Assembly (NCBI GenBank): GCA_964604825.1
Contig: CAZSAL010000007.1
Coordinates: forward strand, 128-64,127
DNA length: 64,000 nucleotides
Direction of reading: 5' to 3'
Source: an uncultured Elusimicrobia bacterium
GTDB lineage: Bacteria; Elusimicrobiota; Elusimicrobia; 2-01-FULL-59-12
Shown: positions 1,949-57,942 of the stretch, one piece after another
How positions within the stretch are numbered: the first letter of the stretch is position 1
Layout: the number at the start of each line of letters is the position of its first letter
The notes under the pieces: generated by a model
The model's input: only the letters and a program-made list of their open reading frames with translations
Told to the model about the DNA's origin: nothing
The model's database searches: none
Translations under genes and position numbers: made by a program

Positions 1949-1989
1949 TCCGCCACGCAACTGGCGGATCTGTCGGACGTCTGGCGGAC
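1949..1989 (+). repeat. GGCGGA-box palindromic element, orphan copy (TCCGCCA-N6-TGGCGGAT-N13-TGGCGGAC)
   Basis: gtccgccacgcaactggcggatctgtcggacgtctggcggac. It shares the 7-mer boxes with the copies at 22538, 44784 and 57767, and shares GACGTCTGGCG with the palindrome at 2343-2364. Confidence 0.7.
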
Positions 1990-2181
1990 TGCCAGCCCGC
2001 TCTAACCAGCTGTCCCGTCCTCTATTTTGCTCGCCCCAGAGGGAGCTACCTCGACGGGACTGCACCGCCCCGTAAGCCGCCTTTGGCGGCGAGTATAGTT
2101 GACAGTGCTGAGCTACCCCGCCAAAAAGTGTTGTTTTTACGTATCGTTTATAACAAATTAATCAGAAGTTCAAATGAGCAA

Positions 2182-4119
2182 TCAAATGCCTTCGCTCGTG
2201 TTTGATCTAAGCAATACCGCAGAGTGTCCCTGAGAAAAAATCATCGAATCCCGGAATGGATTTACGGCGCCGGCGCCGCCATAACGGACATCATTACTGG
2301 ACCAGATCATGGACCAATGGGGGGCCGCCCCGCCACCTGACCGGTCGCCAGACGTCTGGCGACCGCCATCTTTTGGCGTCTGGTCAGGTGGTGGGGCCAT
2401 CAGCGGTTCGGGAATTGGGTCTATCTTTAGATCAATCCCCAAATTGACCAAAAGCAGCCTGTCGCCATGCTCTCCCCCGAACCAGCGCATGGCAAAAACC
2501 CTGTCAGCTATCAATGCCCCGTCAATGGAATTGCGTGATTGCGCCACAATAACCGGATCTTCCCTGCGCAGACGAATCAGGTCCTGATGGAACCGGTAGG
2601 CCCCGGCATGCGTACGGCGTTCTGCCAGATCGAGCCGGGAACGTTCGAAAGTTCCGGGATCTGTGGGCAGGGGAATCGACGCCTGAGCATTTTCAGCTGC
2701 ATAGCTTGGGAACTGCGATAAAAGCCGCTTCCGCCCTGCATTGACCAGCTTGCCCAGTTCAGGATTGTGGTCGACAAAAAAGAGGAACGGGCGGCTCGAA
2801 GCGAATTCCTGCCCCATGAATAGCAGCGGCGTTTCCGGTCCCAGCAGGAGCAAAGCCGCCATGCAGCGGTACAATGCGGGGTCGGCCAGCGCGTGAATCC
2901 GCTCGCCGTGAAGATGATTGGCCACATGATCGTGATTCTGAAGAAAATGGATGAAGGCCTCAGCCGGTTCATTGGTAACACAGGTTCCCCTCCGGGCCTT
3001 TTGAAAGGAATGATACTGCCCCTGATAGAGAAAACCTCTTTTCATGCAGGAAATCAGTTCCTGCGGCGTACCCCTATAATCGGCGTAATAGGCTTCGCGC
3101 CTCCCGGTAAGCGCCACCCGCGCGGCATGATGGAAATCATCATTCCAGGTGGCGTCAAGGCCGTATCCGCCAGAGGAACGATCCCGTATCTGGCGGATTT
3201 CCCGCAGATCGTTTTCAGATGTCAGGATAATCGAGCGGCCGCCTGCCGCTTCACGGGCGCGATCGGCGATTTCGGCAAGGATATGCACCGGGCTGGAATC
3301 ATGGATATCCTGGGTCGCGTCAAAGCGCAGGCCGTCAATATGGAATTCCCGGATCCAGTAGCAGGCGTTCTGGATAAAAATATTCCGGACGTCTTTCGAA
3401 TGCGGACCGTCAAAGTTGATGATATTGCCCCATTCGTTCTTTTCTTTCTTGAATAGATCATCCGTGAAAATGCCCAGATAATTGCCGTCAGGCCCGAGAT
3501 GGTTGTAGACAACGTCGAGTATTACGCCCAGCCCCAGGGAGTGGGCGGTATTCACAAAGCGCTTGAAGGCCTGAGAATCTCCGTAGATATGTGCGGGAGC
3601 GAAAAGGGACACGCCGTCATATCCCCAGTTCCAGCGTCCGGGGAATTCCGCTACCGGCATGACTTCAATGGTGGTTATTCCAATGCTTTTAAGTTCGGCA
3701 AGTTCTTTCGCCGCGGCGTCAAACGTTCCTCCCGGAGTAAATGTGCCTATGTGCAGCTCATAGATCACCTGGCCGCGCATCCCGACGCCCGGCCAACCGG
3801 AATCCGTCCAGCGGAAAGCCTTATGGTCAACAATCATTGATGGGCCATGCGGTCCCTCTGGCTGATAATTAGACCAGGGATCAGGATAAGGGCCGGAGCC
3901 ATCCGCGCGATATCGGTAAAGCTTGCCACCACGCAGCCCGGGGATAAATCCTTCGAAGTGGAAATTGTTTTTTTTAAGAGGAAAGGAACGGCCATCTTCC
4001 AGAATGACGTCTACCTGGGCGCATTTCGGCGCCCAGATACGGAAATGGACGCCGTCCGGCTCCACTAGCGCGCCGCAGTACTGCCGCTTAATGGCCACAA
4101 GAGACCTGGACATGGGCAC
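2182..4119 (-). CDS. treZ: Malto-oligosyltrehalose trehalohydrolase-like GH13 enzyme
   Basis: 645 aa. N-terminal CBM48-like VHFRIWAP. GH13 regions GYDGVSLFAP, ILDVVYNHLGPDGNYL, IDGLRFDATQDI, LTSENDL, FLQNHDHVAN. Confidence 0.8.
   Translation of the reverse strand: MPMSRSLVAIKRQYCGALVEPDGVHFRIWAPKCAQVDVILEDGRSFPLKKNNFHFEGFIPGLRGGKLYRYRADGSGPYPDPWSNYQPEGPHGPSMIVDHKAFRWTDSGWPGVGMRGQVIYELHIGTFTPGGTFDAAAKELAELKSIGITTIEVMPVAEFPGRWNWGYDGVSLFAPAHIYGDSQAFKRFVNTAHSLGLGVILDVVYNHLGPDGNYLGIFTDDLFKKEKNEWGNIINFDGPHSKDVRNIFIQNACYWIREFHIDGLRFDATQDIHDSSPVHILAEIADRAREAAGGRSIILTSENDLREIRQIRDRSSGGYGLDATWNDDFHHAARVALTGRREAYYADYRGTPQELISCMKRGFLYQGQYHSFQKARRGTCVTNEPAEAFIHFLQNHDHVANHLHGERIHALADPALYRCMAALLLLGPETPLLFMGQEFASSRPFLFFVDHNPELGKLVNAGRKRLLSQFPSYAAENAQASIPLPTDPGTFERSRLDLAERRTHAGAYRFHQDLIRLRREDPVIVAQSRNSIDGALIADRVFAMRWFGGEHGDRLLLVNLGIDLKIDPIPEPLMAPPPDQTPKDGGRQTSGDRSGGGAAPHWSMIWSSNDVRYGGAGAVNPFRDSMIFSQGHSAVLLRSNTSEGI
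2328..2396. repeat. Nested palindromic element embedded in frame in treZ
   Basis: The outer inverted repeat is ccccgccacctgacc (2328-2342) against ggtcaggtggtgggg (2382-2396). The inner unit ggtcgccagacgtctggcgacc (2343-2364) is a perfect 22-bp palindrome. The element encodes the low-complexity insert PPPDQTPKDGGRQTSGDRSGGG. Confidence 0.85.
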
Positions 4120-22519: not shown

Positions 22520-22537
22520 TTTCATTTCTCCTTTTTT

Positions 22538-22601
22538 ATCCGCCAATAAAACGCCGGCGGATCCGCCAACGACTCAGTGGTTGATAAGCCTCAATGGCGG
22601 A
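22538..22601 (-). promoter_or_regulatory. GGCGGA-box twin-hairpin element in the 83-nt intercistronic gap upstream of the wza-like gene
   Basis: Minus-strand RNA: UCCGCCA-N26-UGGCGGA UCCGCC-N11-GGCGGA, followed by AUAAAAAAGGAGA and the ATG. The core GGCGGATCCGCCAACGACT is identical to the copy at 44801-44819. Confidence 0.7.
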
Positions 22602-22602
22602 C

Positions 22603-44783: not shown

Positions 44784-44829
44784 TCCGCCCCCACTTCTTT
44801 GGCGGATCCGCCAACGACTTAATGGCGGA
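44784..44829 (-). promoter_or_regulatory. GGCGGA-box twin-hairpin element filling the ssb-rpsR intercistronic gap
   Basis: Minus-strand RNA: UCCGCCA-uuaagucgu-UGGCGGA UCCGCC-N11-GGCGGA, followed by GAAAGGAAAAAUUAUG. It includes the 16-bp perfect palindrome TTGGCGGATCCGCCAA. Confidence 0.7.
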
Positions 44830-44841
44830 TATATCCACCGG

Positions 44842-55084: not shown

Positions 55085-57745
55085 TTATTTCGAAGTATAG
55101 GCGGTCCCCTTCTTCGATTTTCCTTCAATGACCGCCTGGGCCGCAGCCAACCGCGCTATCGGAACTCGGAACGGCGAGCAGGAAACATAACTCAGGTTCG
55201 CACGGTGGCAGAATTTCACGGACGCAGGGTCGCCGCCGTGCTCTCCACAAATGCCGCATTTCAGGTCCTTCTTAACTTTGCGGCCCTTCTGCACGGCCAT
55301 TTCCACCAGCTGGCCCACACCCTGCTGATCCATCGTCTGGAACGGATCATCCTTGAAGATTTTCGCTTCGATATAAGCCTTGATGAACTTGCCTGCGTCA
55401 TCGCGCGAAAACCCGAGCGTCATCTGGGTAAGGTCGTTGGTTCCAAATGAGAAGAAATCCGCTTCAGTTGCGATCTGATCCGCGGTAAGCGCGGCGCGCG
55501 GCACTTCAATCATTGTTCCTACGGTGTATTCGATCTTCACGCCGTATTCCTTCATGGTTGTTTCGGCTGTGCGGACAACGATGTCTTTCTGATTTTTCAG
55601 CTCGTTGACGTTGCCCACAAGCGGGATCATGATTTCCGGAACAACCTTGATTTTCTCTTTCGCCAATTCGCAGGCCGCTCCGATAATGGCTCTCACCTGC
55701 ATCTCCGTTATTTCCGGATAGGTGATGCCCAGGCGGCAGCCGCGGTGGCCGAGCATGGGGTTGAACTCATGCAGCTCTTCCGAGGCGCGCTGAATCTTTT
55801 CCACAGGAATGCCGATTTTCCTGGAGAGGCTTTCGGCGTCCTCCCGGGTTTTGGGAAGGAACTCGTGCAGCGGGGGATCGAGCGTCCGGATGGTTACCGG
55901 GTATCCCTTCATTTCCCTGAAGAGCCCCTTGAAATCATCCTTCTGGAAAGGCAAAAGCTTTTCCAGCGCCTTTTTGCGCGCTTCAACGTCCGTGGCAACA
56001 ATCATTTCCTGCATGAAAGGCAGGCGTTCTTCCGCAAAGAACATATGCTCCGTGCGGCAGAGACCGATGCCCTGGGCGCCGAATTCGCGGGCAACTTTGG
56101 CGTCGCGCGGGATATCTGCGTTGGCGCGGACTTTAAGCCTGCGGAGGTTATCCGCCCAGCCCATGAATATGCCGAACTCGCCGGAAATGGTCGGTTCGAT
56201 AAGCGGGACCTGGCCGAGAATAACGCGCCCCGTGGAACCATCAATCGTAACCCAGTCGTTTTCTTTTACAACCGTTCCGTTTATGCGGAACAGCTTTTCC
56301 GCTTCGGAGACCCTGATATCTTCACAGCCTGCCACGCAGGATTTGCCCATGCCGCGGGCAACGACAGCCGCGTGCGAGGTCATGCCTCCGCGCGCAGTGA
56401 GGATACCTTTTGCCGCATCCATGCCATGGATATCGTCAGGATTGGTTTCCTGCCTAATAAGAATGACGGGTTCACCGTCTTTTCCGCCGCGTTCGGCAGC
56501 GGTATCAGCGTCAAAAACCGCCTTGCCGGTAGCCGCGCCGGGTGAAGCGGGCAGCCCTTTTGCAATAACTTTTAACTGCGCCTTCGGGTCAATCACCGGG
56601 TGCAGAAGCTGATCAATCTGTTCCGGCTCCAGACGCATGAGGGCTTCTTCCTTGTTGATCAATTTTTCCTTCACCATATCTACAGCGATTTTGATCGCAG
56701 CCTGCGCTGTACGCTTTCCCGTACGGGTCTGCAGCATGTAAAGCTTGTTCTTTTCGATCGTGAACTCGAAGTCCTGAACGTCCCTGTAATGTTTTTCCAG
56801 GCGTGATGTAATGTCGCGCAGCTGTTTGTAAACAGCAGGCATGTCATTGCCCAGGTTCACAATCGGCTTTGGCGTACGGATTCCAGCCACAACGTCTTCG
56901 CCCTGAGCATTAGTCAGATATTCTCCATAAAACACTTTTTCTCCGGTAGACGGATTGCGGGTAAAGCCCACGCCTGTGGCCGAGTCGTCACCCATGTTGC
57001 CAAACACCATGGACTGCACATTGACGGCCGTGCCCAGGTCGTCTGCGATCTTGTTCAACCTGCGGTAGGTAATAGCCCGCGGGTTGTTCCACGACTTGAA
57101 GACGGCGTTTCGCGCACCCTCAAGCTGCTTCCAGGGGTCCTGCGGGAAGGGTTGTCCGACATGTTTCTCAAAAACTTTCTTATACCCTTCCACGATCACC
57201 TTCAGGTCGTTAATATCAAGCTCGGTATCCTGCTTAACGCCGCGCTTATGCTTCTGTTCCTCAAGAACATGCTCAAACTCATTTTTCTCTATGCCTTCCA
57301 CGACATTGCCGTACATCTGCATGAAGCGGCGATAGGCATCCCAGGCGAAGCGGGGGTTCCCCGTCAGTTTTGAGAGCCCTTCCACAACTTCCTCACTTAT
57401 TCCGAGGTTCAGGATGGTATCCATCATGCCTGGCATGGAAAATTTCGCGCCGGACCGGACAGAGACGAGAAGAGGGTTGGAAGGATCTCCGAAGCTCTTG
57501 CCCATAACCTTCTGGAGTTTTTCCATGGCAGACTTCTGCTGAGTTTCCAGATCCTTAGGCAGCTGCTGCTTGTTCGCATAATAATAACGGCAAACATCCG
57601 TTGTAATGGTGAAACCGGCAGGGACGGGCACGCCCGCATTGGTCATTTCCGCCAGGCCGGCGCCTTTGCCGCCCAGCAAATCCTTCATGGTTCCTTTGCC
57701 GTCTGCCTTACCTGCACCGAAAAAATACACATACTTTGTAGCCAT
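55085..57745 (-). CDS. ppdK: Pyruvate, phosphate dikinase
   Basis: 886 aa. MATKYVYFFG...GKGAGLAEM, phospho-histidine loop GGMTSHAAVVARGMG, PEP-utilising C-terminus FFSFGTNDLTQ. Confidence 0.97.
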   Translation of the reverse strand: MATKYVYFFGAGKADGKGTMKDLLGGKGAGLAEMTNAGVPVPAGFTITTDVCRYYYANKQQLPKDLETQQKSAMEKLQKVMGKSFGDPSNPLLVSVRSGAKFSMPGMMDTILNLGISEEVVEGLSKLTGNPRFAWDAYRRFMQMYGNVVEGIEKNEFEHVLEEQKHKRGVKQDTELDINDLKVIVEGYKKVFEKHVGQPFPQDPWKQLEGARNAVFKSWNNPRAITYRRLNKIADDLGTAVNVQSMVFGNMGDDSATGVGFTRNPSTGEKVFYGEYLTNAQGEDVVAGIRTPKPIVNLGNDMPAVYKQLRDITSRLEKHYRDVQDFEFTIEKNKLYMLQTRTGKRTAQAAIKIAVDMVKEKLINKEEALMRLEPEQIDQLLHPVIDPKAQLKVIAKGLPASPGAATGKAVFDADTAAERGGKDGEPVILIRQETNPDDIHGMDAAKGILTARGGMTSHAAVVARGMGKSCVAGCEDIRVSEAEKLFRINGTVVKENDWVTIDGSTGRVILGQVPLIEPTISGEFGIFMGWADNLRRLKVRANADIPRDAKVAREFGAQGIGLCRTEHMFFAEERLPFMQEMIVATDVEARKKALEKLLPFQKDDFKGLFREMKGYPVTIRTLDPPLHEFLPKTREDAESLSRKIGIPVEKIQRASEELHEFNPMLGHRGCRLGITYPEITEMQVRAIIGAACELAKEKIKVVPEIMIPLVGNVNELKNQKDIVVRTAETTMKEYGVKIEYTVGTMIEVPRAALTADQIATEADFFSFGTNDLTQMTLGFSRDDAGKFIKAYIEAKIFKDDPFQTMDQQGVGQLVEMAVQKGRKVKKDLKCGICGEHGGDPASVKFCHRANLSYVSCSPFRVPIARLAAAQAVIEGKSKKGTAYTSK

Positions 57746-57766
57746 TTATGTCTCCTTTTATACGCT

Positions 57767-57811
57767 ATCCGCCACTGAACCGCTGGCGGATAAATCCGCA
57801 GATATGGCGGG
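57767..57811 (-). promoter_or_regulatory. GGCGGA-box twin-hairpin element in the ppdK 5' leader
   Basis: Minus-strand RNA: AAACCCGC-cauaucu-GCGGAUUU, then AUCCGCCA-gcgguucag-UGGCGGAU, followed by AGCGUAUAAAAGGAGACAUAAAUG. Confidence 0.65.
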
Positions 57812-57942
57812 TTTAGATTGCCCAGTTTGATTGTTGTGGAATTCGACTAAGTGGGCTTGTATTTTGAAGCTTAGGAGATTTTATCAAACAGGCGGGGGGT
57901 AGGGAAGGGGATGTCCATTTCAATCCCATGAAACCATCGCCG

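Follow-up and report, generated by a model that had tools for sequence, protein, structure and literature searches.

A twin-hairpin element that lies directly 5' of the Shine-Dalgarno (SD) sequences of unrelated genes in an Elusimicrobia genome is probably a REP-like dispersed repeat, non-coding, GC-rich and palindromic, with a bias of insertion or retention towards the 5' edge of the SD. The window, the whole 64-kb stretch analyzed here, corresponds to C7:128-64127 of a 2.74-Mb, 53% GC Elusimicrobia MAG (G000). In this genome the bias in position and orientation relative to the SD is real and unusual. On present evidence, it amounts to a genomic passenger that relatives do not conserve, rather than to a new regulatory system.

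Element Architecture and Copies in the Window

The repeat unit has the form yCCGCCA-N9-TGGCGGr and occurs mostly as a doublet of 46-50 nt. In the three gene-proximal copies of the window, all on the minus strand, a distal hairpin (HP1) is followed by a spacer of 0-6 nt, an SD-proximal hairpin (HP2), a further 2-10 nt (1-11 nt in the preliminary description, with which this agrees), the SD and the start codon. HP1 has the arms yCCGCCA/TGGCGGr and a loop close to ACTGAGTCGTT, with CGTC present in some HP1 loops. HP2 consists of CCGCC, an 11-nt loop and GGCGG; its loop is highly variable between copies and has YAG at its 3' end. The motif NYAG (TTAG, TCAG, GTAG) lies 5' of the 3' arm in 16/22 copies, GTAG itself occurring in 4/22, inside the loop.

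Reading the sequence site by site recovers all four copies that had been described, namely twin hairpins before a wza-like gene, rpsR and ppdK and a fourth copy elsewhere. The gene names used for them are confirmed by Pfam, with Poly_export+SLBB, Ribosomal_S18, PPDK, a flippase-GT4 fusion, SSB and a TreZ-like amylase at the window genes. HP1 of the wza copy (22562..22601, minus) begins 1 nt past the TAA stop of the flippase-GT4 gene and pairs TCCGCCA with TGGCGGA around a 26-nt loop containing ACTGAGTCGT. Its HP2 (22539..22561, minus; TCCGCC, 11-nt loop, GGCGGA) is followed by TAAAA, the SD AAGGAG (22533-22528) and the wza-like ATG (22519). In the rpsR copy, a 12-nt arm remnant, ccGGTGGAtata (44841-44830, minus), separates the ssb stop TAG (44844-44842) from HP1 (44807..44830, minus), which reads ATCCGCCA-TTAAGTCGT-TGGCGGAT with a 9-nt loop; HP2 (44784..44806, minus; TCCGCC-AAAGAAGTGGG-GGCGGA) abuts the SD GAAAGGA (44783-44777), upstream of the rpsR ATG (44770). 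The 11-nt loop claimed for the SD-proximal hairpin is read at both copies (22561-22539 and 44806-44784), and the 19-mer that they were said to share, GGCGGATCCGCCAACGACT, is exact at 22556-22574 and 44801-44819, the only two occurrences in the window against a chance expectation of 0.

The ppdK copy retains only a degenerate HP1 remnant, CCCGCCATATCTGCGG (57796..57811, minus), before a full HP2 (57766..57792, core 57790-57768, minus; TATCCGCCA-GCGGTTCAG-TGGCGGATA) in the ppdK 5'UTR. The SD AAGGAG (57757-57752, minus) lies 10 nt past HP2 and the ATG is at 57745. The fourth copy (1949..1989, plus) is a weak variant, TCCGCCA-CGCAAC-TGGCGGA with a GACGTC-type half unit, in a 640-nt gap. It adjoins tRNA-like sequence, has no start codon alongside and is an orphan, as described. 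Covariance-model scores are 62.8 bits for the rpsR copy, 49.5 for wza, 32.4 for ppdK and 19.3 for the orphan (1945-1992).

Beside the orphan, the structured region 1990-2130 (minus) holds tRNA-like pieces, GGCGGGGTAGCTCAGCACTG ... CAGCTGGTTAGAGCGGGC, as well as a helix of 8 bp, GTCCCGTC/GACGGGAC; ARAGORN and Rfam return no match there. A lone hairpin, TCCGCCAGAGGAACGATCCCGTATCTGGCGGA (TCCGCC-20 nt-GGCGGA, 3166-3197), lies within the TreZ-like ORF and scores 15 bits with the covariance model, R1. In Rfam, the sole gathering-score match of the window is a tRNA, and local E-value and permissive scans give chance-level matches only.

Family Size and RNA Structure

That the element belongs to a recurring family, as had been proposed, is borne out across G000. 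CCGCC-N11-GGCGG occurs 61 times in the genome compared with ~13 for each other loop length, the outward arrangement at N11 occurring 11 times, and the yCCGCCA-N9-TGGCGGr unit is ~5-fold over-represented. Of the 61 exact CCGCC-N11-GGCGG units, 37 are intergenic, when ~15% of the genome is. A pattern search alone yields ~24 doublets, and R1, seeded with 22 oriented doublets, yields ~33 doublet loci and ~8 singles. Subfamilies differ in their spacer, which is of 2 nt (AT, GT, AC or GC), ACGC-type or GTTTAT-type, the last with outer stems TAAAC/GTTTA and TTAT/ATAA.

The pairs that close the hairpins swap C-G and U-A independently in HP1 and HP2. Among the 22 doublets, pair 5-27 is CG in 12, UA in 9, UG in 1 and never unpaired, and pair 34-56 is UA in 12, CG in 8 and otherwise in 2. 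HP2 is close in sequence to HP1 read as the reverse complement, and the doublet RNA reaches its energy minimum, ~-25 to -31 kcal/mol, in a nested fold. In the corresponding single long hairpin, the outer pair 5-56 is unpaired in 11/22 copies and excess covariation is absent. One long REPIN hairpin is therefore not backed by covariation as the conserved structure, though it is the thermodynamic optimum. The SD is single-stranded in all predicted folds. Between copies, stems are 94% and loops 54% identical, the usual REP pattern.

Placement Relative to Shine-Dalgarno Sequences

How close is the association with the SD across the genome? With starts assigned automatically on home-made and crude gene calls, each being the first to have an SD-like motif and to open an ORF of >=45 aa, 14/33 doublets of G000 end <=25 nt 5' of an SD-preceded start in forward orientation, with the GAGTC-loop hairpin distal. 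Only 1/33 is SD-adjacent in the reverse orientation, the orientation in R1 depending partly on seeds that were oriented with gene context in view. A 46-nt element placed randomly in intergenic DNA would be SD-adjacent in 6.5% of cases (P = 6e-9). A null built on the pre-insertion state, with all intergenic positions counted and tiny operon gaps included, puts the share at 10-16% when either orientation is allowed and at 5-8% when orientation is random (P 5e-5 to 1e-10 overall, and about 1e-7 to 1e-9 against 5-8%). By eye, ~20 copies are SD-adjacent, including singles and one copy with a third hairpin after it. Of the 14 SD-adjacent copies, at least 8 have a GAGTC-type loop in the distal hairpin, and none has one in the proximal hairpin.

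The preliminary description had read the fixed position as a sign of function beyond selfish REP spread. Position and orientation relative to the SD are indeed non-random genome-wide; conserved or locus-specific regulation is unsupported.

Some ~9 copies begin 0-2 nt past the upstream stop codon and therefore fill the whole intercistronic gap. SD adjacency does not hinge on abutting an upstream stop: of the 14 loci with an upstream spacer of >60 nt, ~9-10 still end <=22 nt from the start. The downstream genes have no common theme and encode S18, L31, L28, PrmC, Hsp20, Wza, HtrA and GalT as well as a stomatin-like protein, SecF, NuoM, BamA, PPDK and MscS. In flank logos, the right flank starts GAR, AAR or GGAG, with A at +2 in 20/30 and 19/24 copies, and the left flank terminates in TTC, CTC or TAG. 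HP2 ends in GGCGGA in the SD-adjacent subfamily and in GGCGGG in the copies of the tRNA T-loop type (see below), a split that fits subfamily-specific targets. Selection on retention may explain the placement equally well.

The bias is not general to the family. In the closed genome G007, with ~53 loci, SD-adjacent copies number 4/53 forward and 3/53 reverse, which is the null rate. The subfamilies may thus prefer different targets, or selection may act on which copies are retained.

Occupied and Empty Sites in Relatives

Counts of R1 loci are patchy, at ~1, 28, 2, 11, 0, 0, 53, 2, 16 and 26 per genome of the family, with one further locus in a neighboring family and no matches across 29 genomes from other families of the class. 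The pattern of HP1, CCGCCAYTRAGTCRTYGGCGG, scanned over 185,579 species genomes, finds 37 stretches; Elusimicrobia MAGs, at 31-60% GC, account for ~30. Full doublets in those MAGs score 60-70 bits, most copies lying away from starts. By these scans the element is confined to some Elusimicrobia. As a point against the REP-like reading, near-identical doublets in genomes of 32% to 60% GC suggest a conserved partner.

At the genes of the window, 5-9 relatives of the same taxonomic family were compared per site. The ssb-rpsR junction lacks the element in six relatives, where TAA, 0-8 nt, GAAAGGA and ATG follow one another, and in G002 (RIFCSPLOWO2_01_FULL_59_12, of a sister genus), G011 not being counted. 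The ppdK 5'UTR lacks it in nine relatives, G002 having another repeat there, and the gap upstream of wza is empty in five. The element is thus not conserved upstream of these orthologs in any relative examined, an outcome under which, by the preliminary description, the functional reading fails.

Differences also run in the other direction. In G002, ~8 copies abut the SDs before rpoC, dapA, murA, yqeY, dnaG and an xre-like gene, and all six of these sites are empty in G000. The xre junction offers a direct comparison, TTAGGAGG against TAG-element-GAGGAG, with a clean TAG^GAGG junction (the caret marks the insertion point) and no duplication. Since presence and absence differ at orthologous sites both ways, the wza, rpsR and ppdK copies are recent, lineage-specific insertions into a stop-to-SD gap or 5'UTR. 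A TTGATAGAAT-like box ~75 nt 5' of the ppdK ATG is conserved in nine relatives and in G000, where it reads TTGATAAAAT (57878-57887, minus), and is probably the -10 region of a promoter. Because this promoter-like box lies upstream of the insert, the ppdK insert would be inside the transcript.

Insertion Contexts and Mobilization

Copies in G007 sit in three settings, namely the T-loop of a tRNA fragment, 8-nt tandem repeats bearing GGAG, and larger duplicated segments. Some of the copies in duplicated segments are identical, and identical copies also occur at loci with different though similar short tandem-repeat flanks. Twin hairpins embedded in tandem repeats are found at the G007 loci L057, L076, L078, L083 and L084 (e.g. 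G007:728969, 1852568, 1889891 and 2213742), where the units of ~8 nt read GGAGTAAC/GGAGTACC or CGATACGC and the array resumes in the same register beyond the insert. Many copies interrupt a T-loop at GGTTC^GAATCC, either in a tRNA gene or in a duplicated tRNA 3' fragment, as at G007:1653401 (L070), at L091, L095, L099, L104 and L106 of G002/G004 and at C3:23796 and C11:63488 of G000. An intact version of the split tRNA is often close by, and one copy lies within an anticodon-loop-like CTTC^GGA.

With the insert taken out, the T-loop reads through without a break, and there is therefore no target duplication at that site. Neither of the two junctions checked (T-loop and xre) has one, and a target-site duplication of the form TAAA...TAAA or GAAAG...GAAAG is rejected on that basis; the TAAAC/GTTTA and TTAT/ATAA flanks are stem extensions.

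No mobilizing enzyme is apparent among the candidates examined. G000 has three Y1_Tnp (IS200/RAYT-like) genes of 250-320 aa (C112:3343-3678, C3:82075-82410 and C18:36319-36642; L001-L003), and all three are bracketed by their own inverted or direct repeats, unrelated to the CCGCC element. Over eleven genomes, Y1_Tnp counts do not follow copy number: the ~53 loci of G007 are accompanied by no more than a 23-bit Y1_Tnp fragment, and in G006 there are 6 Y1_Tnp genes and 0 loci. Gene flanks and cross-genome counts together rule out a RAYT as the mobilizer. Genes bracketed by copies in G007 are toxin-antitoxin-like or belong to duplicated cassettes, with no consistent partner.

The published SRM pattern, HGTCWYN(0-2)YYVSBRHN(0-5)WNVSBRGN(0-2)RNCYNB, matches 0/33 copies on either strand, and the identity of the CCGCC element with NTS/SRM repeats is rejected on that basis. 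The pattern fits instead the other repeat of G002, a different hairpin dimer just 5' of the SDs of rpsR (L006) and ppdK (L115), the positions that the CCGCC element takes in G000. The ppdK dimer consists of an exact NTS consensus, CGTCATTCCCGCGMAVGCGGGAATCYRG, and a GGATCCCCGC...GCGGGGATGAC partner (consensus from Neisseria; PMC11893778); the first unit of the rpsR dimer is a longer-loop NTS variant.

Taken as a REP-like repeat, the element may spread as a single-stranded DNA hairpin by means of a trans-acting enzyme. Insertion or retention would favor sites directly 5' of a run of purines (^GAR, ^GGAG or ^GAAAGG; antisense YYTC), which in intergenic DNA would mostly be the SD and in other genomes the T-loop of a tRNA fragment, GGTTC^GAATCC, or a tandem repeat that contains GGAG. 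If the mechanism is strand-specific, it would set the orientation too. Once inserted, a copy would be transcribed within an operon or 5'UTR and fold with the SD left unpaired, and would therefore be tolerated. It may incidentally affect mRNA decay or the termination of upstream transcripts, and RNA-level effects of this kind are possible as a secondary consequence. A purine target of 3-4 nt is, however, too weak to be the sole cause of the SD enrichment.

Comparison with Known Repeats

The element resembles the REP/BIME/REPIN repeats of Proteobacteria, among them the GTAG- and CGTC-tagged REPs (Di Nocera et al., 2013, PMC3733652), which are likewise short, GC-rich imperfect palindromes with tens of dispersed intergenic copies and frequent, closely spaced doublets. 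Conserved stems with compensatory changes, variable loops, copies that abut or supply stop codons, a patchy copy number among relatives and the YAG motif beside the 3' arm add to the likeness. Unlike the REP tag, which is unpaired at the outer end, the tag of the element lies within the loop. Differently to REP-RAYT systems, the element flanks no RAYT gene and RAYT counts are uncorrelated with its copy number, and differently to REPINs, covariation supports two separate hairpins rather than a long one, although the minimum-energy fold is the nested one. REPs are normally found near the 3' end of the upstream ORF, at a variable distance from the downstream ORF (PMC3733652), whereas the element adjoins the downstream SD and start.

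The closest described two-stem-loop repeats just upstream of genes are Neisseria REP2 and Borrelia IR-A/IR-B (Delihas, 2011, PMC3184786), which are dispersed and stand directly before many unrelated genes. These repeats are, however, 120-180 bp long and come with a promoter, an RBS and an ATG, none of which is present in the 46-50 nt of the element. Its SD is native, because the empty orthologous sites already have SD and ATG.

NTS/Ssn-related motifs, cut by GIY-YIG ssDNA nucleases, are also widespread hairpin repeats that vary in copy number and function in single-stranded form (Chenal et al., 2025, PMC11893778), but the arms and loops of the element are unrelated to theirs. The IS200/IS605-type HUH elements (IS608, ISDra2) share hairpin ends, the lack of target duplication, insertion at a short target and a strand-specific orientation; the element differs in having no associated transposase and a loose target (antisense YYTC, sense GAR). 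MITEs differ in that the T-loop and xre junctions of the element are uninterrupted, with no target-site duplication, and Rfam cis-regulatory RNAs in that no curated model matches and orthologous sites are empty.

Alternative Explanations

Could the SD-adjacent copies have acquired a role? It is possible, if rather doubtful, that elements of mobile origin have been exapted as RNA punctuation and that selection keeps those beside an SD. Such copies might stabilize the neighboring cistron, by shielding the upstream gene from 3' exonucleases or by forming a 5' structure that protects the RNA once it is cleaved. They might also break translational coupling between operon genes or keep upstream sequence from interfering with the SD. 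The predicted folds that all leave the SD free are consistent with this, and selection on structure locus by locus could likewise account for stems that stay conserved while loops diverge among non-orthologous copies. The same may be said of the copies that start 0-2 nt past a stop codon; a REP at that distance in E. coli reportedly reduces upstream expression through ribosome stalling (Liang, Rudd and Deutscher, 2015). The unrelated NTS-type dimers at the same SD-proximal spot of rpsR and ppdK in G002 point to convergence on position. It is harder to reconcile with exaptation that the downstream genes share no theme, that the orthologous genes of relatives manage without the element and that G007 is rich in copies yet lacks the SD bias. 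Empty orthologous sites weigh in the same way against a dedicated translational operator, in which one RNA-binding protein or the 30S platform would bind the GAGTCGT loop and thereby govern, as a regulon, the genes that carry the twin hairpin. This reading is very unlikely, despite the fixed distance and orientation relative to the SD and the conservation of the HP1 loop sequence over Elusimicrobia of 31-60% GC, given that G007 and the low-GC genomes have numerous copies far from starts, in tRNA fragments or tandem repeats, that the HP2 loop is highly variable and that Rfam holds no matching family.

A palindrome that acts as DNA and not as RNA, bound by a protein as BIME/REP sites are by gyrase or IHF, or as a repressor operator is, appears very unlikely. 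The junction of the two hairpins, TGGCGGATCCGCCA, is a perfect 14-bp palindrome and the units have a 23-bp period, and REPs are known to be bound by such proteins (PMC2817692). Yet the pair at the center of the junction, columns 27-34, is unpaired in 6/22 copies while the closing pairs of the hairpins covary cleanly, a symmetric site would not predict an orientation bias relative to genes, and the copies lie downstream of promoters, within transcripts. A bolder and unlikely extension is that ribosome-binding sites have a 5' edge to which this family is directed, or at which it is selectively retained, as may hold for several other Elusimicrobia hairpin repeats unrelated to it. It would get there through strand-specific insertion of ssDNA at the antisense SD (CTCC/YYTC), or would serve exactly between stop and SD as punctuation for mRNA stability or translational uncoupling; in both cases a conserved protein would read the GAGTCGT loop phylum-wide.

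Significance

REP-type repeats are usually described after genes, and a family that stands before the SD in a single orientation, without a RAYT partner, is an unusual variant. If its bias reflects an insertion preference, it would represent a new target rule for the mobility of hairpin DNA. The natural pairs of genes with and without the element (rpsR, ppdK, rpoC, xre and others) offer a way to assess how translation and mRNA decay respond to a stable hairpin at -15. In the annotation of Elusimicrobia MAGs, the element could mislead predictions of riboswitches and leaders.

A Separate Repeat in treZ

The palindrome inside treZ (2328-2396), which had been taken as a relative of the element, belongs to a separate repeat of ~70 nt and has only the style of GC-rich arms in common with it. 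This repeat surrounds the palindrome GTCGCCAGACGTCTGGCGAC (core CCAGACGTCTGG) and is present at ~5 loci, window 2328-2396, C1:106424, C18:2097, C20:38692 and C22:37384, the window copy lying in the C-terminal DUF3459 region of the TreZ-like ORF. Some 25 shorter CCAGACGTCTGG palindromes are scattered across the genome, three of them in apparent long variable arms of tRNA genes (C45, C51).
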